A stretch of DNA of 50,737 nt from Candidatus Peregrinibacteria bacterium. Its GTDB lineage: Bacteria; Patescibacteriota; Gracilibacteria; Peribacterales; Peribacteraceae. The notes beneath the pieces were generated by a model, which was not told the DNA's origin, made no database searches, and saw only the letters and a list, made by a program, of their open reading frames with translations. This document shows positions 302 to 42,648 of this stretch, piece by piece. Within the stretch, counting starts at the first letter, position 1. Every line of letters starts with the position of its first letter. The stretch covers positions 1 to 50,737 of the forward strand of contig JACPYA010000041.1 of assembly GCA_016196295.1 (NCBI GenBank), given 5' to 3'. A program made the position numbers and the translations under genes.

Positions 302-2449
302 TTGGCACTTCATCATGGCCGTATGCGCTACCTCGTCCTCCCCTCGTCGCGCTCATCCGGGATTGGCAACGGGCTGACGTATGAGGCGAACGATGTGAAA
401 GTGGGATCGGCCGTGCGGGTCCCGCTTCGAAACAAACTGGTCGAAGGAATCGTGTTCGATGTTATACAGGAGAGAGCATCGGTGGAGTACGACGTGAAAC
501 AGGTGAAAGAAATTCTCGGAGATGCTCCTCTTCTGACCGATGTGCAGCTTCGGCTCGTTCGATGGGTAGCGGAGGAATACTGCTGTTCTCTTCGGGCCGC
601 GCTGAGTGTCTTTCTTCCGCCTCCTCCATGGTCTGCACTCCTGCCAGCGGACATTACTGGATATGCTCTCAAGGGATCGATCCCCGAACATTTGCGAAGC
701 AAAAAACAGATGCACGTCCTCGAATATTTGCAGGGTAAAGATTGGGTCTCCATCGATAATCTCAAAGGAGGGACGGGAGTGACGAAACCCGTCCTCGATG
801 CACTGTTGAAGCAAGACCTGATTGAAAAATCCCTCCAAAAGGAATCATCGACGGAAACCAAAAACCAAAAACCAAAAACAAATCAACCGATCCTCACGGA
901 AGCCCAAAAAAGCGCATATGAATCAATGAGGGCGGACCCCAGACCATCGCTTCTCTTTGGCATCACGGGAAGCGGAAAAACCGAGGTCTATGCCCAGCTG
1001 ATCGCCGATACGATTGAGGCGGGCAAGCAAGCGATCCTCCTCGTGCCGGAGATCCTCCTCACGGAACACTCCATTCATCGGTTCCGGAATCTGATCGATC
1101 CCGAATACATTGCCATCGTTCACAGCCGCCTGACGCCCTCGCAGCGACGCGAAACGTGGAAGAAGATTCATCGAGGCGAGATTTCCCTCGTCATCGGCTC
1201 CCGGAGCGCACTCTTCAGTCCACTCTCGAAGCTCGGCCTTGTCATCCTCGACGAGGAGCACGAGTGGACGTACAAGAATGAACAGACGCCGCGCTATCAC
1301 GCGCGCGAAACGGCAGACGCACTCTGTCGATTCACGGGCGCGAAGCTCGTGCTCGGGACGGCGACCCCGTCGCTCGAGTCGTGGGCGCGGGCAAAAGCCG
1401 GAAGGTATCATCTCGCGAGACTGCCGGAGCGATATAAGAATCAGCCGCTTCCGGCCGTGCGTGTCATTGATCTCGCAGAGGCGCGCTTCGGGGCGATGTA
1501 TCCCTTCTCTCCCCCACTGCTTACTGCCATCGAGGAGCGTCTGAAGAAAGGAGAGCAGTCCGTACTGTTTTTGAATCATCGCGGGACTGCAACATCGCTC
1601 CTCTGCCTGCAGTGCCGGCGGCGGATCGTCTCGCCCGAGTCGCAACTGCCATTCACTGTTCACGAAGGACGAGACGGAAAGCCGTTTTTGCTCGATCACA
1701 TCTCCGGCGTCAGCGCTCCGGTGCCAAGCGAATGCCCGTCCTGTCACTCGACAAATCTCCTCGCGGTCGGTGCAGGGACACAGAAGGTGGAAGCATTGCT
1801 GAGAAAACAATTCCCGACCGCCCGACTGCTGCGCGCAGACAGCGACACGCTCGAGCATCCCGAGCAGATGCGACTCCTCCTCGAAAAGATGCGCGACGGG
1901 CGCGCGGACATCTTGCTCGGCACACAATCGGTCGTAAAGGGTCTGGACCTTCCCAATGTCACGTTGGCAGCGGTCCTCGTCGCCGACATCGGACTCTCGC
2001 TCCCCCACTTCCGTGCCGGCGAACGCATCTTCCAGCTCCTCACGCAGCTCACAGGAAGGAGTGGGCGTGCGAAGCTGGGGGAGGTGATCATCCAGACCTT
2101 TCGTCCCAACGCTCCCGAAATTTTGGCTGCTGCAAAGCATAAAACGGAGCCCTACCTGGAGCAAGAACTGAAGCTGCGTCTGTATACCGGCTACCCGCCC
2201 GCGACCCGCATGATCCGGCTAATTTTCCGCGGGTCGGACGCGAAACTCCGTGCGGAGAAGCTGCACATCGCCGTTCTGCAGACCATCGCGCGCCAGTCTC
2301 TCACGGCAAAAGCGAGCGTCGCGCCCACACTCTTCGGAGCCGGGAAGGTGTGGCATGTCCTCCTCTCTTGTGAGGAGCCACGGAAGATTATTACACAATT
2401 GGATTTGACTGATGTGGTGATCGATGTGGATCCCATCGAATGTGTGTGA
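302..2449 (+). CDS. priA: Primosomal protein N' (replication restart helicase PriA)
   Basis: 715-aa ORF with the Walker A motif GITGSGKTEVY, DEEH, a Cys-rich insertion (CLQCRR...CPSCHS) and C-terminal helicase motifs. The start is uncertain (TTG at 302 or ATG at 323). Confidence 0.9.
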   Translation: MALHHGRMRYLVLPSSRSSGIGNGLTYEANDVKVGSAVRVPLRNKLVEGIVFDVIQERASVEYDVKQVKEILGDAPLLTDVQLRLVRWVAEEYCCSLRAALSVFLPPPPWSALLPADITGYALKGSIPEHLRSKKQMHVLEYLQGKDWVSIDNLKGGTGVTKPVLDALLKQDLIEKSLQKESSTETKNQKPKTNQPILTEAQKSAYESMRADPRPSLLFGITGSGKTEVYAQLIADTIEAGKQAILLVPEILLTEHSIHRFRNLIDPEYIAIVHSRLTPSQRRETWKKIHRGEISLVIGSRSALFSPLSKLGLVILDEEHEWTYKNEQTPRYHARETADALCRFTGAKLVLGTATPSLESWARAKAGRYHLARLPERYKNQPLPAVRVIDLAEARFGAMYPFSPPLLTAIEERLKKGEQSVLFLNHRGTATSLLCLQCRRRIVSPESQLPFTVHEGRDGKPFLLDHISGVSAPVPSECPSCHSTNLLAVGAGTQKVEALLRKQFPTARLLRADSDTLEHPEQMRLLLEKMRDGRADILLGTQSVVKGLDLPNVTLAAVLVADIGLSLPHFRAGERIFQLLTQLTGRSGRAKLGEVIIQTFRPNAPEILAAAKHKTEPYLEQELKLRLYTGYPPATRMIRLIFRGSDAKLRAEKLHIAVLQTIARQSLTAKASVAPTLFGAGKVWHVLLSCEEPRKIITQLDLTDVVIDVDPIECV

Positions 2450-4923: not shown

Positions 4924-5194
4924 GACGGAATGTTACCAGACGTCCTATGATTTTTCATTCCTTTCTTTTTCGCGAGCTGCTCGCACTTCGAGCAAGATTT
5001 GATCGTATATTCAACTATGATATTCATAGACGGATCTGGTGATGGGACTACCTTCGCCTTTTTCATCATGGCCTGCGTGTGCGATGCGCGCCTCGCTAAG
5101 TTTCAACCAGGCGATTTGATCAAGCTCTTTCAGATCAATGGAATAAGCATATCCATCTACTCATTTGATTCGCAATCCTTCATACTATTTATAG

Positions 5195-5261
5195 GCCCCC
5201 GTAGCTTCCGCCTTCGTCCCGCTCTTGCGGGACTACGGACGGACAGGAGTGGCTATAATCC
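5195..5261 (+). repeat. R1 module upstream of tRNA-Arg, containing a TATAAT box
   Basis: GCCCCCGTAGCT (identical to tRNA-Arg positions 1-12) is followed by TCCGCCTTCGTCCCGCTCTTGCGGGACTACGGACGGACAGGAGTGGCTATAATCC. TATAAT lies about 30 nt upstream of the tRNA start. Confidence 0.7.
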
Positions 5262-5291
5262 TCTTCGATCGAACGATCTTTAGATTTCCGT

Positions 5292-5367
5292 GCCCCCGTA
5301 GCTCAGTGGATAGAGCAGTGGGTTTCTAACCCATTGGCCGTAGGTTCGATTCCTGCCGGGGGTACCA
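5292..5367 (+). tRNA. tRNA-Arg (anticodon TCT) with encoded CCA
   Basis: Hand-folded cloverleaf of 76 nt: acceptor GCCCCCG/CGGGGGT, D arm GCTC-AGTGGATA-GAGC, anticodon loop TTTCTAA, T arm GTAGG-TTCGATT-CCTGC, then A-CCA. Confidence 0.9.
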
Positions 5368-5374
5368 TTGTATT

Positions 5375-5605
5375 ATGCAGCGCATCGGAGTCTATATATT
5401 AGAAGGCAGAAGATTCTATGTTGGCAGCACGACAGATCTTGATCGCAGGCTTCTACAACACGAGAAAGGTCATACACATACTACAAAAAGAATCGGAAAA
5501 TGGGTTTTGAAGAAATTTTTCCCATGTGCTTCGGTCTCAGAAGCCAGAACTCTGGAGGCGCAGATCAAAAAATCAAAGAACATATCTAGATGGCTTACCG
5601 AATAG
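5375..5605 (+). CDS. Small GIY-YIG nuclease-family protein (UPF0213/YhbQ-like)
   Basis: 76 aa: GVYILEGRRFYVGSTTDLDRRLLQHEKG matches the GIY...YVG...R...H core. It begins 7 nt after the tRNA-Arg CCA, and its stop codon lies inside the downstream tRNA fragment. Confidence 0.8.
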   Translation: MQRIGVYILEGRRFYVGSTTDLDRRLLQHEKGHTHTTKRIGKWVLKKFFPCASVSEARTLEAQIKKSKNISRWLTE

Positions 5606-5662
5606 AGCAGCCCCGCATTTCTGCGGGGTTGGCCGTAGGTTCGATTCCTACCGGGGGTACCA
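5602..5662 (+). pseudogene. Duplicated 3' portion (D loop to CCA) of a tRNA-Arg(TCT)-like gene
   Basis: ATAGAGCA-GCCCCGCATTTCTGCGGGGT-TGGCC-GTAGGTTCGATTCCTAC-CGGGGGTACCA. The T arm and acceptor match tRNA-Arg at 5292-5367. The anticodon arm has diverged into a non-canonical 6- or 8-nt loop, and no 5' acceptor or D-arm partner lies directly upstream. Confidence 0.75.
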
Positions 5663-7103: not shown

Positions 7104-7560
7104 AGTGAGTAGTGAGTAGTGAGTAGTTTGTAGTGAGTAGGAAACTTCTATACAGTGAACCGCTATGCCCATTCAGAGCTATCGGGATCTTATTGTGTGG
7201 CAAAAGTCCATGGATCTTGTGACCCTCGTCTACAAACTGACCAAGGACTTTCCAAAAGATGAGTTGTACGGGCTAACGTCGCAAATGAGACGGAGTGCTG
7301 CATCCATTCCTTCCAATATTTCAGAAGGAAGCAGAAGATCTACACGCAAGGAGTTCAGAAGATTCCTCTGTATCGCTTATTCGTCAGGAGCTGAGCTGGA
7401 AACTCAATTAGAAATCGCTATTCGCCTCGAATATGGTAATCTGGTGTTCATTCAGGAAGCTCAAAATCTCCTTACAGAAATTATGAAGATGCTTAATAAA
7501 ATGACTTATTCACTCAAGCCAGCAGTCTCTGTTAACTACTCACTACCAACTACCCACTGA
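7103..7560 (+). mobile_element. IVS-like hairpin element carrying a four-helix-bundle gene, inserted between pyrH and frr
   Basis: The 5' arm at 7103-7141 is (GTGAGTA)n-like (AGTGAGTAGTGAGTAGTGAGTAGTTTGTAGTGAGTAGG). The 3' arm at 7536-7558 (CTACTCACTACCAACTACCCACT) is its imperfect complement. The ORF lies in the loop. Confidence 0.7.
7165..7560 (+). CDS. Four-helix-bundle protein (23S rRNA intervening-sequence protein family)
   Basis: 131 aa: YRDLIVWQKSMDLV...FPKDELYGLTSQMRRSAASIPSNISEGSRRST-KEF..FL.IAYSSGAELETQL is the family signature. Confidence 0.9.
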   Translation: MPIQSYRDLIVWQKSMDLVTLVYKLTKDFPKDELYGLTSQMRRSAASIPSNISEGSRRSTRKEFRRFLCIAYSSGAELETQLEIAIRLEYGNLVFIQEAQNLLTEIMKMLNKMTYSLKPAVSVNYSLPTTH

Positions 7561-12685: not shown

Positions 12686-12730
12686 CGGCTTCGTCCTCCC
12701 GCATGCGCGGGACGGGACTACGCCGATATT
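12686..12730 (+). repeat. 45-bp R1-type hairpin module, one half of a perfect inverted pair with 16425-16469
   Basis: CGGCTTCGTCCTCCCGCATGCGCGGGACGGGACTACGCCGATATT. Its reverse complement occurs identically at 16425-16469. Confidence 0.9.
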
Positions 12731-14426: not shown

Positions 14427-14972
14427 TTGGTGCTCTTCGCATCCACTGTTCTTGGCTTGCTGCTGGGATTTTCTTCCCCGATCTCGCTGCTGAATGCCGT
14501 GCCGGAAACGCGCTGGCAGCCGGAGGCGGGAGACGTCCTCCTGATCGATACGAAGGAGAACGTTGGGTACTTGGTGCACCGTGACGGGGTCTTCACGACC
14601 TTCCGTCTCGCCACGGGCCAACGCAGAGTCGTGAGCTACATCGGCCGCACGTACGACGCGACGACCCCGGAGAAATCGTGGGTAGCGCAGAGTCCGGTTG
14701 AGTTTAAAGGTGACCGCATTACCTTCGGAGCCGAGGGTCGTTTCCTGCGTCTCTGGGACGATGGGGAGCGCACGCCGTACGGCATTCATCCTCACCTCTA
14801 TAACGAGCGGATGCTCGCAAAGGATGATCGCTTCGAGAGCATGGGGTGCATCATCGTCAGCGACGCCATGATGCAGGTGATCGAAGACACATTCGCCCTC
14901 AACGGCAATCACCTCGAAGTCGTGACCTCCTTCGGTCTCGAGGGGCTTCGAAAGAGCTTGGCGCTCCAATAA
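14427..14972 (+). CDS. L,D-transpeptidase (YkuD) domain protein
   Basis: 181 aa with an N-terminal TM or signal sequence and GIHPH...SMGCIIVS, which resembles the YkuD catalytic His/Cys motif. Confidence 0.65.
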   Translation: MVLFASTVLGLLLGFSSPISLLNAVPETRWQPEAGDVLLIDTKENVGYLVHRDGVFTTFRLATGQRRVVSYIGRTYDATTPEKSWVAQSPVEFKGDRITFGAEGRFLRLWDDGERTPYGIHPHLYNERMLAKDDRFESMGCIIVSDAMMQVIEDTFALNGNHLEVVTSFGLEGLRKSLALQ

Positions 14973-15238
14973 TCGCACCTGCAGGTAGGTTGCAATGTTC
15001 TTCGTAACATTTTTTTCAGAGCAACTTTGCCTTTTGTCGTTTTAAAATAGCGTTCTCTTCCCAGTGCATCTTCTTCTAAATGAAATGCTTCGTAAAAAAG
15101 AATTCTGAAAGGTCGCCGAGTTTTTGTGGATTCCACTTTGCCCTCTTGATGTTCCACGAGACGTTTGCGCAAGTCACGAGTGAATCCAATGTATAATTTT
15201 TCATCTCGTAGGCTCTGCAAAACATAGGTGTAATACAT
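14909..15238 (-). CDS. Small GIY-YIG nuclease-family protein
   Basis: 109 aa: YYTYVLQSLRDEKLYIGFTRDLRKRLVEHQEG...RERYFKTTKGK. The last roughly 25 aa overlap the convergent L,D-transpeptidase gene and look like read-through. Confidence 0.8.
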   Translation of the reverse strand: MYYTYVLQSLRDEKLYIGFTRDLRKRLVEHQEGKVESTKTRRPFRILFYEAFHLEEDALGRERYFKTTKGKVALKKMLRRTLQPTCRCDYWSAKLFRSPSRPKEVTTSR

Positions 15239-15297
15239 AGCAAGCGAGTATATCAGTGGCCATGAACCACTCGCTAGCGCTCGGATTCATTGCTCGC

Positions 15298-15377
15298 CAT
15301 AAACCAAGCGACCCACATTAATAGTGCGGTGTACTACCTGCCACTATTTCTCAAGCATACTGTCGCTTTGGTTTATG
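15298..15377 (-). pseudogene. Degenerate copy of the tRNA-Ser(GCT) 5' half, enclosed by a 16-nt inverted repeat
   Basis: The minus strand reads ATAGTGGCAGGTAGTACACCGCACTATTAATGTGG, compared with GAGTGGCCGAAAGCACCGCACTGCTAATGCGG in the tRNA. It is flanked by CCATAAACCAAGCGAC / GTCGCTTTGGTTTATGG. Confidence 0.5.
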
Positions 15378-15391
15378 GCGGAGAGGGAGGG

Positions 15392-15552
<161 letters not shown>

Positions 15553-16424: not shown

Positions 16425-16469
16425 AATATCGGCGTAGTCCCGTCCCGCGCATGCGGGAGGACGAAGCCG
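16425..16469 (-). repeat. Inverted partner of the 45-bp module at 12686-12730
   Basis: A perfect 45/45 reverse-complement match. Confidence 0.9.
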
Positions 16470-24793: not shown

Positions 24794-27148
24794 ATGCAGC
24801 GAATCTTCCAGACACAGGAGCAGGTGGAAAGCATCTGGATTGGGCCAGAAGATGCCAAAAAGTTGAGCACAGATGACCTGAAAGCCTACGACCTCGCGAA
24901 GAAGATCATGGCGCACCTCTGCATCCAGGCGCCGACCAAACACAAGTCCGGGCACCCCGGCGGACCGCTTTCCTCTTTCACGTTCGCCTACTTCCTCTAT
25001 AAGCGCCGTGATCTGTCTACCGATGCGCCCTTTCGCATGAGCGCCGGGCATTTGAGCCTGCTTGCCTACGGGCTCCAATGGCTGTTCCATCGCGAGGGAT
25101 CCGACCCTCGACTCCAGAGTCCTCAGACGATCATCGATGCGTTCAGGGTTCCCGACGGGCTTCCCGGTCACGTGGAGGCGGGCATCGGCGACATCCCGTT
25201 CGGCGCGGGCCCGCTGGGGAAAGGCGTCAGCAATGCCCTCGGTGTCGCGTTTGGCATGCAGTACCTGAAGAAACAGGGTGCCGTCGATGTCCTGATGGCG
25301 GACGGCGACGCGCAAGAAGGACAGATCATGGAAGCCTTCCGTCTTGCATCGCACTTGGGACTCGGAAACCTTCTCGTTCACGGAGATTTCAACGACATTC
25401 AGTTGAGCGATATGCCGAGCCGCACGGTGGCTGCGGACTTCGCGCAGATCGCGAAGGCAGCAGGGTGGCAAGTGATCGAGGTGCAGAATGGGAATGACCC
25501 GGGACAAGCGGTCGCGGGGCTCGACCTCGCCGATACGCTCCGATCCAAAGGCAAACCCATCTTCCTCTGCTACTACACGACCATGGGCCACGGCGTGAAG
25601 GTGATGGAGGAAGGCTCGAACACCGGGAAGGCGAACTACCACGGCTCGCCGCTCAAAGATGACGTCGCGGCGCAGGCGCTGAAGGATCTGCCCCCACTCG
25701 AGGAGCTTGTCACGCAGTACCAGCCGTACCGACGACAGTGGAAAGTGGAAAGTGCAAAGTGGAAAGCCGGTCCATTGTCTCCCCCGCCGAAAATCGAGAG
25801 AACCATCACGGCGGAAAAAGGCGCGGCGCGGCAGGACTTCGGCGCGGTGCACCTGAAAAATCTCATGAACGCCGATGCGCGCATCGTCATCCTGCACGCG
25901 GACCTCGCGGCGTCCGGCGGCTTCGACCCTTCGGCGCGCTTCGCTTGCTCAGGGCAAGCACCTCGCGTCATAAACGTTGGCGTGGCGGAAGCGAACATGT
26001 ACATGATGGCGGCGGGGATGCGCCAAGCGGGACTGCTCCCGGTGACCTACACGTTCGCGGCTTTCGGCACGAATGAAGCGAGGGCGAACGCGCGCCTCAT
26101 TGACATCAATTGCGGCCACACGCGCTGCGCGGTGCTCCACGACTGCACGCACGCGGGGCTCTCCGTCGGCGAAGACGGCGAGACGCATCAAGAGCGAAAT
26201 TACCTGAATATCCCGCTGGACCGCACGCAGGTCTGGATGCCAGGCGACAGCAACCAAGCGGCGGCGATGGCGGAACGCGGGATGGAGCTGATCGCGGAAG
26301 GCACGACGAGCGTCTATGTCTTCTTCCCCCGGAGCGGCCACGAGCAGCTGAAAACTCCCACAGGCGAAGTGATCTACGGAAAAGAGTATCGCTTCGACGG
26401 CAAAATCGACCTCATCCGCGGCAAAAACGACGCAACCGACCAGGTGACGATCATCGCGACGGGCATCCCCGTCCATGATGCGGTGCTGGCCGCGGATGCC
26501 CTCGCAGCGAATGGACGAGTGGAAAGAGGAAAGAGGAAAGAGGAAAAAGAACGGACAAAACTTTCCACTTTCCACTCTCCACTTTCAACTTCTCCGCACT
26601 TTCCACTTTCCCTGCCCGTCCGGCAGGCGGGCACTTTCAATTTTCCACTTCGTGTAAGAGTGCTGAACGTCTCCTGCGTCCGCCCCATCGACGCCTCGGC
26701 GATCATCCAGGCGGCGCTCGAGACGTCGCATTTGATCGTCGTCGAAGATCACCACAGTGAAGGAGGACTCGCGACGCAGGTCGCAGACATCATCGCGGAC
26801 TTCCAGCTCCCCTGCTCGCTGCGCCGTCTCGGCGTGAACCACTATTTTCCCTCCGGCACGGACAAAGACCTCAAGTTCCTCGCCGGTCTCGACTGGGAGA
26901 GCATCGTGAACGCGGTGCTGGATGAATTACACTCGGAAGTGACGGGAGGCGAAGATGCTCTTGTAACAGCCATTTTTGCGATGTCGAAGAATGCGAAAGA
27001 GAGCCGGTTCCAGGATGCCGCGGCACCCTTCATCGATCGGCTCAAAAACGAGAAAGGCTATCTGGAATCCTTGCGAGCCGCGTGGGCGAAGCGCTCCTGT
27101 CCGCCGGAGAAGCTGCCGGACAATGCGCGGCTCAGAAGTCTGATCTGA
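24794..27148 (+). CDS. tkt: Transketolase (N- and C-terminal halves fused) with repeat-derived insertions
   Basis: It contains HPGGPLS, GDG..QEG (the ThDP site), a Pyr domain (GVAEANM) and a C-terminal domain. The ATG at 24794 is the likely start. See the findings for the insertions at 25737 and 26516. Confidence 0.9.
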   Translation: MQRIFQTQEQVESIWIGPEDAKKLSTDDLKAYDLAKKIMAHLCIQAPTKHKSGHPGGPLSSFTFAYFLYKRRDLSTDAPFRMSAGHLSLLAYGLQWLFHREGSDPRLQSPQTIIDAFRVPDGLPGHVEAGIGDIPFGAGPLGKGVSNALGVAFGMQYLKKQGAVDVLMADGDAQEGQIMEAFRLASHLGLGNLLVHGDFNDIQLSDMPSRTVAADFAQIAKAAGWQVIEVQNGNDPGQAVAGLDLADTLRSKGKPIFLCYYTTMGHGVKVMEEGSNTGKANYHGSPLKDDVAAQALKDLPPLEELVTQYQPYRRQWKVESAKWKAGPLSPPPKIERTITAEKGAARQDFGAVHLKNLMNADARIVILHADLAASGGFDPSARFACSGQAPRVINVGVAEANMYMMAAGMRQAGLLPVTYTFAAFGTNEARANARLIDINCGHTRCAVLHDCTHAGLSVGEDGETHQERNYLNIPLDRTQVWMPGDSNQAAAMAERGMELIAEGTTSVYVFFPRSGHEQLKTPTGEVIYGKEYRFDGKIDLIRGKNDATDQVTIIATGIPVHDAVLAADALAANGRVERGKRKEEKERTKLSTFHSPLSTSPHFPLSLPVRQAGTFNFPLRVRVLNVSCVRPIDASAIIQAALETSHLIVVEDHHSEGGLATQVADIIADFQLPCSLRRLGVNHYFPSGTDKDLKFLAGLDWESIVNAVLDELHSEVTGGEDALVTAIFAMSKNAKESRFQDAAAPFIDRLKNEKGYLESLRAAWAKRSCPPEKLPDNARLRSLI
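26516..26652 (+). mobile_element. ORF-less hairpin element of about 135 nt inserted in frame in tkt
   Basis: GTGGAAAGAGGAAAGAGGAAAGAGG ... CTTTCCACTTTCCACTCTCCAC form inverted arms. The CCCTGCCCGTCCGGCAGGCGGGCACTTTC hairpin is identical to the one at 42510-42540 and 42576-42606. Confidence 0.7.
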
Positions 27149-29003: not shown

Positions 29004-29210
29004 GTCAATCCGCCTTCGTCCCGCAAGTGCGGGACTGCGCCGGACAAGGGGCTTTTGTGTTGTGGCATTGCAAGCGAAGCCGATGGTTTGACCCGCCCGA
29101 ACGATCTGATCGTTCGGATCGGGGCGGGTTCCCCGGAGCGTGCTCCGCAAGGGGGAGTCCAGAGCCCTGCCTGCCGGCAGGCAGGTTGCTCCGGGATTCA
29201 TACCAATGAT
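29004..29210 (+). ncRNA. Candidate structured RNA, copy B (unclassified)
   Basis: The 207-nt core is homologous to 14210-14395 in reverse orientation. It is preceded by the AT-rich TTATATTTACTATTCT. It carries an extra perfect hairpin (CCTGCCTGCCGGCAGGCAGG) at the tip of a conserved stem. Confidence 0.5.
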
Positions 29211-35024: not shown

Positions 35025-35066
35025 GATGCCCCTCCAAACCCCCTTTGTACAGACCTACATTTTGAA

Positions 35067-35421
35067 TGGCGGAGAGGGAGGGTCTGCTTCGCGCTTTTGC
35101 TCTGCAAAGCTACGCAAGGCAGAGAGCTACGCAGACCAGAAATGTCGTTTTGCGAATGAATATCCAGAGCCTTGTTTTAGATAACGTTCAAATATCTCGG
35201 CTTTCTGTCGGTCTGAAAAAGTTACGACAACTTCGATTTTCCACGGAACATGCGGGCTTGTTGTTTTAGTCAGTGTGCGATTGTGCTCATCCATTCGCAC
35301 ACGAGGATCTTTGGTTGTGTATCCTACATATGTCATCCGGGGATTTTTGATGCTTCGCAGAAGATATACGTGATACATAGTTCCCTATCGTAGCCAATTC
35401 TGCAAAGCTTGCGAAGTAGGA
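35067..35421 (-). mobile_element. Putative autonomous GIY-YIG mini-element bounded by tRNA-Ser 3'-end copies
   Basis: The left boundary is TGGCGGAGAGGGAGGG (35067-82, the same 16-mer as the 3' end of tRNA-Ser(GCT)) followed by the hairpin GGTCTGC...GCAGACC. The right end is GCAAAGCTTGCGAAGTAGGA, followed by TGGCGG. The ends are homologous to the ends of the 67- and 75-nt ORF-less units. Confidence 0.6.
35127..35378 (-). CDS. Small GIY-YIG nuclease-family protein
   Basis: 83 aa: MYHVYLLRS...TYVGYTTKDPRVRMDEHN...AEIFERYLKQGSG. The stop codon TAG lies within the GCGTAGCT core of the terminal hairpin. Confidence 0.75.
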   Translation of the reverse strand: MYHVYLLRSIKNPRMTYVGYTTKDPRVRMDEHNRTLTKTTSPHVPWKIEVVVTFSDRQKAEIFERYLKQGSGYSFAKRHFWSA

Positions 35422-35583
35422 TGGCGGTTCTTCTCCGCAAGCTACGAAGAACATTCACTTGCATTGCTCTGCACGAGATCCTACGTAGCTTGCGAAGTAG
35501 GATGGCGGTTCTTCTCCGCAAGCTACGAAGAACATTCACTTGCATTGCTCTGCACGAGATCCTACGTAGCTTGCGAAGTAGGA
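35422..35583 (-). repeat. Two tandem 81-bp units (a 75-nt MITE-like element plus the TGGCGG duplication) abutting the 3' end of tRNA-Ser(TGA)
   Basis: The units start at 35422 and 35503, and the third TGGCGG (35584) is the tRNA 3' end itself. Each unit has two hairpins whose 12-nt loops (TTCGCAAGCTAC and GTAGCTTGCGGA) are mutually complementary. Confidence 0.85.
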
Positions 35584-35673
35584 TGGCGGAAGCGGGAGGA
35601 TTCGAACCTCCGATGCTCTTGCGAGCATACCTGTTTTCAAGACAGGCCCGATCAACCACTCCGGCACGCTTCC
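35584..35673 (-). tRNA. tRNA-Ser (anticodon TGA) with a long variable arm and encoded CCA
   Basis: The reverse complement reads GGAAGCGTGCCGGAGTGGTTGATCGGGCCTGTCTTGAAAACAGGTATGCTCGCAAGAGCATCGGAGGTTCGAATCCTCCCGCTTCCGCCA. Confidence 0.9.
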
Positions 35674-35760
35674 AAAATAATGATAGCAAATTGGTGCGGG
35701 GCAAGCCGTCGCCTTAAACCACTCGGGGCCGAAGGCCACCCTTCGGGTCTCCCTCTCCAG

Positions 35761-42240: not shown

Positions 42241-42314
42241 GGAGTGGAAAGTGAGACGGAGAGTGGAAAGTTGAAGGTGGAAAGTGGAAAGAGAAAAGGT
42301 TAAGATAGCAAACT

Positions 42315-42458: not shown

Positions 42459-42490
42459 CATAACTTTCCATTTACCACTTTACACTTTCC

Positions 42491-42622
42491 ACTCTTCACG
42501 GTCCGTAACTTTCCCTGCCCGTCCGGCAGGCGGGCACTTTCTACTTTGCACTTTTCACTCTTCACGGTCCGTAACTTTCCCTGCCCGTCCGGCAGGCGGG
42601 CACTTTCCACTTTCCATTTTGC
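42491..42622 (+). repeat. 66-bp tandem duplication (x2) containing the CCCTGCCCGTCCGGCAGGCGGGCA hairpin
   Basis: CTCTTCACGGTCCGTAACTTTCCCTGCCCGTCCGGCAGGCGGGCACTTTC occurs at 42491 and at 42557. Confidence 0.85.
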
Positions 42623-42648
42623 ATTTTCCACTTCCATTTAAGGCGCAT

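Follow-up and report, generated by a model that had tools for sequence, protein, structure and literature searches.

How does a bacterial tRNA gene come to be followed, within a few nucleotides (nt), by a gene for a small nuclease and then by a second copy of its own 3' part with a hairpin in place of the anticodon arm? The question is raised by positions 5140-5662 of the window, i.e., the 50,737-nt stretch of Candidatus Peregrinibacteria contig JACPYA010000041.1 that was analysed as a whole. Here, an intact tRNA-Arg(TCT) gene stands together with a stand-alone open reading frame (ORF) for a GIY-YIG nuclease of 76 amino acids (aa) and with pieces of the same tRNA on both sides. We take the locus to hold one copy of a small selfish cassette, apparently undescribed so far, that occurs in at least 130 loci of two phyla (Peregrinibacteria and Verrucomicrobia). 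Our preferred reading, to which we assign a probability of about one half, is that of a homing-like nuclease cassette which colonises tRNA genes and which spreads, amplifies and decays via recombination between tRNA-derived repeats while one working tRNA is kept.

Architecture of the tRNA-Arg(TCT) locus

Across its loci, the cassette is composed of up to four units, which we name A to D in 5' to 3' order. Unit A is present none to three times per locus and consists of tRNA positions 1-26, a GC hairpin, tRNA positions 44 to ~50-65 and a spacer of ~40 nt. Unit B is an intact tRNA, and unit C is the ORF, found ~4-31 nt 3' of B. Unit D begins with the 3' side of the D arm, continues with the hairpin and closes with tRNA positions 44-76. 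Loci other than that of the window are denoted by L numbers.

In the window, all units are located on the forward strand. Unit B is the tRNA-Arg(TCT) at 5292-5367, which encodes its CCA (ARAGORN; Rfam tRNA model, 71.1 bits). It is followed by a spacer of 7 nt (5368-5374) and by unit C at 5375-5605 (Pfam PF01541, 43.6 bits at a cut-off of 22.6, E-value 3.8e-11). Unit D starts inside the ORF, i.e., its D-arm-like first part GCTTACCGAATAGAGCA (5593-5609) overlaps the final codons and is aligned by Infernal from tRNA model position 8 onwards; 5593-5610 shows 78% identity to the D arm at 5301-5318. The stop codon TAG (5603-5605) is thereby part of ATAGAGCA (5602-5609), a repeat of the 3' side of the tRNA's D arm. 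Next comes the GC hairpin GCCCCGCATTTCTGCGGGGT (5610-5629; stem strands GCCCCGC and GCGGGGT around the loop ATTTCT), with which 20 nt substitute the 17-nt anticodon arm (positions 27-43). It is predicted to form a 7-bp stem, or 10 base pairs (bp) when the neighbouring bases are included. The remainder of D (5630-5662) holds the variable loop, T arm, 3' strand of the acceptor, discriminator and CCA. It lies within a 34-nt repeat (5629-5662) that matches B (5334-5367) at 33/34 positions, and the sole mismatch results in a T-A pair where the T stem of B has T.G.

Unit D is no tRNA gene in its own right. Within the region, ARAGORN calls one tRNA only (5292-5367) and none in the downstream copy, and Infernal assigns 5591-5651 to tRNA model positions 8-63 with 20.4 bits, which is below the gathering score of 29 and does not include the acceptor stem. 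An independent complete tRNA is thus ruled out.

Upstream of B, the native flank of the locus (5140-5194) is homologous to the sequence directly 5' of the lone tRNA-Arg in the syntenic, cassette-free loci L138 and L141. It is followed by an exact copy of tRNA positions 1-12 (5195-5206), placed 97 nt before its counterpart 5292-5303; by our own arithmetic, the chance expectation of an exact 12-nt match within ~1 kb is ~1e-4. Then there is an R1-type hairpin repeat (5207-5242; CTTCG..CTACG) and finally a stretch (5243-5291) that combines a degenerate, roughly D-arm-like sequence CAGGAGTGGCTATAATC with a spacer. This stretch has no counterpart in the empty sites and shows weak similarity to the L011 spacer and the L009 upstream flank (z-scores 2.6-3.0). 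At the same position, the relatives L007, L009, L011 and L016 carry a full A unit (tRNA 1-26, hairpin, positions 44 to ~50-65). Hence, 5195-5291 is better read as a degenerate A unit, i.e., tRNA positions 1-12, an unrelated R1-type repeat, the mutated D arm CAGGAGTGGCTATAATC and a spacer.

An earlier, sequence-only reading of this DNA had listed tRNA positions 1-12 at 5195, an intact tRNA-Arg, 7 nt, a 76-aa GIY-YIG ORF with its stop codon inside duplicated D-loop sequence, and a second tRNA copy from D loop to CCA with an identical acceptor and a near-identical T arm, and had proposed a tRNA prediction as a check. All of these elements are confirmed by the results above, including that the downstream fragment does not belong to an independent tRNA. 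Its description of the 5' end as an R1 module that starts with tRNA positions 1-12 is, on the other hand, better replaced by that of a degenerate pseudo-unit with an unrelated repeat in its D loop. The R1 copy 5207-5242 is located in the D loop of this pseudo-unit, directly 3' of GTAGCT, and L008 (~1666-1703) shows the same arrangement, with an R1-kind module after GTAGCT in a Lys-type pseudo-unit A.

The only gene between the repeats is the ORF. We found no recombinase or integrase there, and the neighbours are GATase_5, DUF4870 and pyrH. TATAAT is present in 5243-5291, where a promoter scan gave no full sigma-70 match, and the 7-nt spacer shows no Shine-Dalgarno-like sequence. Sequence reading and scan reveal no promoter-like or ribosome-binding sequence of the ORF's own; its product is probably made from the tRNA transcript.

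Three further interpretations of the locus were considered and rejected. The hairpin is not an intrinsic terminator, as TGGCCGTAGG without a T run follows the stem and a scan gave no terminator at 5610-5640. A group I intron or other known RNA family is not supported either, since no Rfam intron family reaches the gathering or E-value threshold and the ORF is 3' of a complete tRNA. Finally, the likeness of TTTCT in the hairpin loop to an anticodon loop is probably coincidence, given that relatives have GCCCCGCAT..TGCGGGGT with unrelated loops.

The same design in two phyla

The layout was kept in 11/11 loci that were found via the protein alone. Partner tRNAs are Arg-TCT (window, L005, L009, L011), Lys-TTT (L007, L014), Lys-CTT (L008, L010) and 'Met'-CAT (L015-L017 from three Verrucomicrobia genomes). 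A scan of metagenomes for the pattern TAGAGCA + GCCCCG..CGGGGT + TGG yielded at least 120 loci, among which we observe the same four partners.

According to the annotation of the pattern scan, the matches listed comprise ~25 loci of state B-C-D, ~20 of state A-B-C-D, ~10 of state A-B-C and ~25 of state A-B. Further states among them are tandem C-D arrays, tandem A arrays and a few lone units. Lone hairpin pseudo-tRNAs were also tried as common 'empty targets', but the screen for acceptor pairing proved too permissive, such that only L100-D and L101 are convincingly complete.

The coupling of ORF and unit D is visible in the proteins as well. In most homologues, the protein either has the C-terminus ..W-x-EQPR, as encoded by (T)AGAGCAGCCCCGC, or is terminated by the TAG within TAGAGCA. 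The former ending implies that a tRNA-like tail with hairpin is located 3' of the ORF in nearly all close homologues, and in most loci of both phyla the TAG of TAGAGCA is the stop codon of the ORF.

The body of the partner called 'Met(CAT)' by ARAGORN (L015-L017 and metagenome loci, e.g., L046 and L110) resembles that of an ileX-like tRNA-Ile2, whose CAU is, as we assume, modified to lysidine. If so, all partners read codons that start with A (AAA/AAG, AGA, AUA).

The hairpin and the tRNA pieces are maintained

The matches listed contain 173 hairpins with 63 sequence variants. The outer stem is fixed by the search pattern. The pairs next to it covary, with A-T, C-G, T-A and G-C replacing each other, and the loops vary freely. 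In Peregrinibacteria, the hairpins reach 12-13 bp with differing sequences and kept complementarity; the GCTCCGC/GCGGAGT hairpin of L005 and L011 represents a double compensatory change. Inner pairs are nearly all Watson-Crick, i.e., G.T was found 4 times and A.C never, so that both RNA and single-stranded DNA are compatible with the pairing. The commonest variant is a perfect 18-bp palindrome. Within a locus, the hairpins of A and D belong to the same length class in 25/25 cases, compared to 71% of between-locus pairs. The hairpin is selected as a structure. It may serve as a nuclease site, as a block against cleavage or recombination, or as a stabiliser of the message's 3' end.

The adjoining tRNA pieces are kept as well. 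In most loci that have both units, D and its own B agree at 100% over the 3' part, despite widely differing tRNAs between loci. D lacks the 5' acceptor strand, where the identity to B is 0.18. For A units, the 5' half shows an identity of 0.83-0.94 to B and the 3' part of 0.35. Either gene conversion or selection accordingly holds D to the sequence of B. It is not a passively displaced remnant, since it is identical to the local B while synonymous sites of the ORF are saturated.

These observations bear on two parts of the sequence-only reading. Its 'aberrant', rewritten anticodon loop is instead a conserved and covarying hairpin module (GCCCCG..CGGGGT), present in more than 170 units from both phyla. 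It had also asked whether the outer 5' and 3' fragments, once joined, restore an ancestral tRNA. They form a cloverleaf that ARAGORN labels 'tRNA-???', with an 'anticodon' of 2 or 4 nt, i.e., a hairpin pseudo-tRNA that is not decodable; because they carry the hairpin, the extra tRNA pieces are unable to decode.

We also note independent insertions of 22-24 nt exactly in the T loop of D (L006 ~375-400, L012 ~417-440, L011 ~2278-2300) and several truncations of A and D that end in the T arm. Both may mark a break hotspot. The cleavage motif of the phage nuclease SegB is T-loop-like.

The GIY-YIG protein

The 76-aa protein consists of the catalytic domain as a whole and has no DNA-binding domain. 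Residues Y7, Y15, G17, R25, H29 and E61 are invariant in 8 homologues, and at N69, the position of the catalytic Asn, either N or H is found. An AlphaFold model (predicted local distance difference test, pLDDT, 85) shows the order b-b-a-a-b-a-a. Its best Foldseek matches are UPF0213 BH0048, EF2693 and the N-terminal domain of UvrC (probability ~1.0, query-normalised template modelling score 0.51-0.66). Sequence matches in the PDB are led by 1zg2 (E-value 3.8e-5) and 1ywl (0.02), with Slx1 also among them. Judging from the conserved residues, the nuclease is catalytically complete.

No NCBIfam model reached its cut-off, including the group I intron endonuclease model TIGR01453 (19.7 bits at a cut-off of 56). 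PADLOC models gave no significant match (best PDC-S14, E-value 0.004 over 32 residues), for which reason we rejected a known defence system.

Between the window ORF and its relatives, synonymous sites are saturated, i.e., the proportion of synonymous differences (pS) is 0.82-0.95 and that of nonsynonymous ones (pN) is 0.17-0.23. For unsaturated ORF pairs, the ratio of the respective rates (dN/dS) is 0.12-0.3. Both point to purifying selection on the protein.

Close homologues are confined to Peregrinibacteria/Peribacteria, the nine closest having 64-80% identity. A profile search in 1.84 billion representatives resulted in 76 clusters with E-values of at most 1e-10. Phage and plasmid collections provided no protein homologue, and the hairpin pattern was not found in viral contigs; a phage or plasmid origin was rejected on these grounds. 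In public annotation, ORFs of 76-81 aa carry names such as 'excinuclease ABC subunit C' or 'GIY-YIG nuclease family protein' (L001/L007, names as in the databases). The L008 gene is interrupted by a TAG in its first third, and its record has only a 51-aa 'hypothetical protein' from the 3' part.

Presence, absence and change of partner

To compare the locus between genomes, syntenic relatives were found via the downstream DUF4870 protein. They share the gene order SpoU, GATase, tRNA-Arg(TCT), DUF4870, pyrH, frr. Sorted by pyrH identity to the window, the cassette is absent from L141 (88.5%) and L138-140 (87.7%), present in L009 (84.7%), absent from L144 (79%) and L142/143 (77%), and again present in L011 (75%) and L006/L012 (65%). 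The sequence 5' of the lone tRNA in L138 and L141 (..ccttcatactatctatag) equals the sequence directly 5' of the 12-nt fragment in the window. These matching flanks indicate that the outer fragments occupy the ends of the resident tRNA, with one working tRNA inside.

The suggestion of the sequence-only reading that ORF and duplication are an insertion-type, non-fixed feature agrees with the syntenic relatives that have the tRNA alone (L141, L138-140, L142, L144). Its overall interpretation is thus supported in part, i.e., for the layout and the non-fixed insertion, but not for the aberrant loop, the reconstruction of an ancestral tRNA and the R1 module start.

Intermediate states are found in Verrucomicrobia, where one locus occurs in three states: L046 is A-B-C-D, L110 is B-C-D with A precisely absent, and L065 is partial, with A-B and a 70-nt ORF stump fused to the end of D. 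A common left flank with differing right flanks precedes A-B-C-D in L049, a lone complete hairpin pseudo-tRNA in L101, and A-B with only the spacer and an ATG in L105. Tandem C-D units reproduce the exact tRNA-to-ORF junction (L006, L012, L013, L016, L035). One Lys family has, 3' of A, a spacer with homology to the upstream promoter region, i.e., its A arrays are tandem duplications of promoter plus tRNA 1-50.

The ORF has changed its tRNA partner repeatedly. A neighbour-joining tree of 62 ORFs requires 10 partner changes, and none of the 60 bootstrap trees requires fewer than 8. For comparison, 3 changes are the lowest number possible, and at least 21 are needed when labels are shuffled. The window ORF itself is 78% identical to the Lys-linked L008 and 75% to L007, compared to 70% for the syntenic Arg-linked L009 (pyrH ~85%).

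Two candidate observations were dropped. The short D loop and TGGCC variable loop of the tRNA at Arg loci with cassette are not diagnostic of an element-borne inner tRNA, since the cassette-free L142 is of the same type. In the Lys family, a precise empty site with the same right flank was sought; relatives do not agree in what follows the tRNA, by which exact borders are not definable there.

Two side observations concern the relatives. In the cassette-free L138-L140 (~2270-2350, reverse strand), the tRNA-Arg(TCT) is inverted relative to DUF4870 and followed by a hairpin module of ~63 nt and by 18 nt that repeat its 3' end (GTCCTGCCGAGGGTACCA), i.e., by another small element that duplicates the 3' end. 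When window 5140-5291 is compared with L009 1760-1920, the spacer types (native ..ccttcatactat..tatag and ..acgatcttt..cgt) are apparently swapped in order; the similarity is weak (z-scores 2.6-3.5).

How the cassette may spread

We propose the following course for a selfish, homing-like cassette. The nuclease would break the DNA of tRNA genes, as the phage GIY-YIG enzyme SegB does. Repair between tRNA-derived repeats could then copy the cassette into cognate tRNA genes, either in a homing-like manner or through integration of a C-D unit by one crossover. If such a unit recombined once with a tRNA gene, exactly the order B-C-D would be expected, i.e., a complete tRNA first, then the insert and finally a copy truncated at its 5' end; tandem C-D arrays would fit that unit. 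The same recombination between repeats may multiply C-D or A units and delete them. As a complete tRNA is always retained 5' of the ORF, host decoding would continue and no harm be done. The ORF would probably be expressed from the tRNA promoter, with an almost leaderless message freed by the 3' processing of the tRNA.

Several points weigh against this proposal. The cleavage of tRNA-gene DNA is proposed after the precedent of SegB, and a bare catalytic domain leaves the choice of site unexplained. If such DNA is cut, the retained tRNA B is itself a target, and no immunity mechanism is evident. The conservation of the hairpin across two phyla is not needed by a plain homing model, and neither phage nor plasmid collections hold a homologue. 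The D-loop base directly left of the hairpin tracks the partner tRNA (A in 4/5 Arg loci, G in Lys loci), which a simple crossover model would not predict. Lastly, the saturated synonymous divergence of the cassettes at the Arg locus implies long persistence, which could mean a useful function.

Alternative explanations

A first alternative, which we consider unlikely, is set at the RNA level. Here, a cellular or addiction-type nuclease would be co-transcribed with the tRNA, and the pseudo-tRNA RNA would, as a tRNA mimic, bind, titrate or guide the protein in the manner of an antitoxin or decoy, or the 3' stem-loop would simply stabilise the message. The kept hairpin structure with its variable loops, 4 G.T and no A.C pairs is in accordance with this, as is the position of D directly 3' of the stop codon, where it retains the identity features of its own tRNA. 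The tandem A arrays on the 5' side (whose units, in one family, each bring along a promoter-region copy), the full-length pseudo-tRNA L100 with a compensatory acceptor change, and the purifying selection and long persistence of the ORF at a syntenic locus fit as well. In addition, all partner tRNAs read ANN codons and are, as we presume, charged in an anticodon-dependent manner. However, nearly all D units are without the 5' acceptor strand (0.18) and A units without the 3' part, such that complete mimics are rare (L100, L101). T-loop insertions are tolerated in some D units (L006, L011), many loci with ORF have no A or no D, and the best PADLOC match (E-value 0.004) is not significant. To our knowledge, GIY-YIG enzymes are DNases. 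The patchy distribution and the deletion derivatives, too, fit a dispensable element.

A rather unlikely reading is that the hairpin pseudo-tRNA pieces are the working partner of the minimal nuclease, be it as structured DNA ends that are cut or as an RNA in the shape of a tRNA by which the enzyme is brought to tRNA genes. If true, this would constitute a new route to target specificity for a mobile element, and in the version with DNA ends the element would be driven by its GIY-YIG nuclease, directed by hairpins and equipped with a tRNA of its own.

A hairpin-directed, transposon-like element is, in our view, less probable still. In this case, the nuclease would recognise the hairpins of A and D as ends, in the form of single-stranded or cruciform DNA, and spacer, tRNA and ORF would be excised or copied and then inserted into another hairpin pseudo-tRNA or a tRNA gene. 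In ~20 loci among the matches listed, the same hairpin indeed flanks spacer-tRNA-ORF in direct orientation, and paired hairpins match in type. Almost pure Watson-Crick stems with a perfect 18-bp palindrome as the commonest variant would suit such ends, the structure-specific nuclease Slx1 is among the nearest solved relatives, and the lone complete hairpin pseudo-tRNA of L101 is found behind a left flank that precedes A-B-C-D in L049. Yet ~25 loci among the matches listed are B-C-D without A, and A is precisely absent from L110. Furthermore, lone pseudo-tRNAs, i.e., the would-be targets, are rare, and A units are variably truncated, in one family being tandem duplications that include the promoter region. 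We also know of no GIY-YIG transposase.

The remnant of an integrase island in a tRNA gene, with the 3' tRNA copy as attR and the ORF as leftover cargo, is very improbable. Islands are classically recognised by a tRNA, cargo and a direct repeat of the 3' part of that tRNA, in this order, and a distal repeat of this kind is present (33/34 positions). In contrast, there is no integrase or recombinase gene between or beside the repeats (neighbours GATase, DUF4870, pyrH), the same cargo of ~230 bp recurs in at least 130 loci, the repeat reaches the D arm and carries the conserved hairpin, and a 5' half is present upstream as well. That the similarity is due to chance, to faulty assembly or to the neutral decay of tandemly duplicated tRNA genes around an unrelated ORF is a negligible option: short repeats are common in this genome, but the identical design in independent assemblies (NCBI, JGI, ENA, Logan) from two phyla, the hairpin covariation and the identity of D to B speak against it.

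Other tRNA-linked GIY-YIG genes and repeats in the window

All three tRNA genes of the 50.7-kb window (3/3) are followed by a co-oriented GIY-YIG ORF. The two tRNA-Ser loci (14909-15552 and 35066-35760, both on the reverse strand) have stand-alone GIY-YIG ORFs of other subfamilies, located at 14909-15238 (Pfam E-value 1.3e-15) and 35127-35378 (9.5e-13), again on the reverse strand. In this lineage, small GIY-YIG genes are thus associated with tRNA genes beyond the family of the Arg locus. Repeats at the Ser loci are two-hairpin modules of 81-83 nt, each of which terminates with the 3' end of the tRNA in duplicate (CCGCCA or CCCTCCCTCTCCGCCA); they are found at 15375-15457, 35397-35558 (two copies) and 35066-35093. 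The parallel to tRNA-Ser(TGA) drawn by the sequence-only reading is thus real, and it holds for both tRNA-Ser loci. At the Ser(TGA) locus, the upstream GGAGAGGGAG (~35743-35752) is complementary to CTCCCTCTCC after the ORF, by which the outer split acceptor matches tRNA-Ser(GCT) and not the inner tRNA-Ser(TGA).

The R1 repeat family (CCG-CTTCG..stem-loop..CTACG-G) has further copies at 12689-12722, 16433-16466 (reverse strand) and 29009-29039, besides the one at 5207-5242. An ORF of the 23S_rRNA_IVP family (7165-7560; Pfam E-value 4e-39) is bracketed by inverted 25-nt units of AGTGAGTAG type (7104-7128 and 7534-7558). Short repeats of ACTTTCCACTTTCC type form clusters at 26560-26635 and 42463-42634, in which each repeat is followed by the hairpin CCCTGCCCGTCCGGCAGGCGGG (66-nt units); their inverted partners are located at 25716-25766 and 42260-42291.

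Relation to known systems

The closest counterpart is SegB of the phages T4/T6, a free-standing GIY-YIG homing endonuclease in a tRNA gene cluster (PMC2330249; PMC13096335). It cuts inside tRNA genes at the motif RAWTSGAAC, and its homologues are enriched beside tRNAs (PMC2330249; PMC13096335). SegB also drives the recombination-dependent tandem amplification of tRNA plus segB, truncated copies included (PMC13096335). Common to both systems is a GIY-YIG nuclease gene among tRNA genes. SegB, however, is encoded by phages, measures at least ~200 aa and includes a DNA-binding part, whereas we find a bare UPF0213-like catalytic domain of 76-85 aa in bacterial chromosomes. Here, the gene is placed 4-31 nt behind one specific tRNA, is accompanied by hairpin-substituted tRNA halves and has its stop codon inside a D arm. 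More generally, a C-terminal DNA-binding domain is defining for Seg and I-Tev-type homing endonucleases and is not present in the 76-aa protein. What is shared with them is the presence/absence polymorphism at a single site (empty in L141, L138-140, L142 and L144; occupied in the window, L009, L011 and L006) and a gene phylogeny incongruent with host or target (at least 8 partner changes in the 60 bootstrap trees).

A similar arrangement was reportedly described by Paquin et al. in 1994 for atp6 of Allomyces, where a fungal mitochondrial GIY-YIG ORF at the 3' end of the gene is said to come with a replacement 3' segment, the displaced original being located downstream. Such ORFs resemble the cassette in their insertion into a conserved gene, whose function is kept by the duplicate, and in the partial copy 3' of the nuclease gene. 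They differ in having a protein-coding target, an in-frame fusion and a displaced piece that decays, while the cassette has a tRNA as its target and a downstream copy that is kept identical save for the conserved hairpin. The logic of the cassette thus resembles that of free-standing homing endonuclease genes and of these mitochondrial ORFs, with repeats that differ in kind and without a DNA-binding domain.

On the protein side, the UPF0213, YhbQ and bacterial Slx1-like proteins (PDB 1zg2, 1ywl) are the best matches in sequence and fold, of similar size and without extra domains; identity of UPF0213-type proteins to the window protein is only ~30%, and no NCBIfam model is reached at its cut-off. 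In the literature searched, we found no description of a tRNA linkage or of pseudo-tRNA repeats for UPF0213. The sole tRNA-related mention in the 2006 survey of the GIY-YIG superfamily is a bacterial Slx1-like domain fused to a tRNA methyltransferase. Nor did full-text searches of the literature yield a description of stand-alone bacterial GIY-YIG genes with hairpin-substituted tRNA halves.

Two other systems share single traits. Integrase islands and prophages in tRNA genes likewise show an intact tRNA, foreign DNA and a direct repeat of the tRNA 3' part, but the present element has no integrase, a cargo of ~230 bp, a D-arm-long repeat with hairpin and a 5' half upstream. Type III toxin-antitoxin systems (ToxIN) have tandem structured repeats 5' of a small nuclease gene in one direction of transcription, as the A arrays are. 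The ToxI repeats act on ToxN in the manner of an antitoxin or decoy. In contrast to ToxIN, a functional tRNA is placed between repeats and ORF, and the nuclease is of GIY-YIG and not of ToxN/AbiE type.

Implications

We describe a widespread and apparently unnoticed class of very small mobile cassettes (~330-450 bp) in bacterial chromosomes, with genome-reduced Peregrinibacteria and abundant soil Verrucomicrobia as hosts. Its structural rule is clean, i.e., every extra tRNA piece has its anticodon arm exactly swapped for a conserved hairpin. In practical terms, the cassettes account for pseudo-tRNA fragments, tandem repeats and problems of assembly and annotation near tRNA genes, and their ORFs are routinely mislabelled as 'excinuclease ABC subunit C'. 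GIY-YIG nucleases, whose connection with tRNA genes was recently demonstrated for SegB of phages, are hereby linked to such genes in cellular genomes as well, and the findings suggest what some members of the large group of UPF0213-like, stand-alone GIY-YIG proteins may do.

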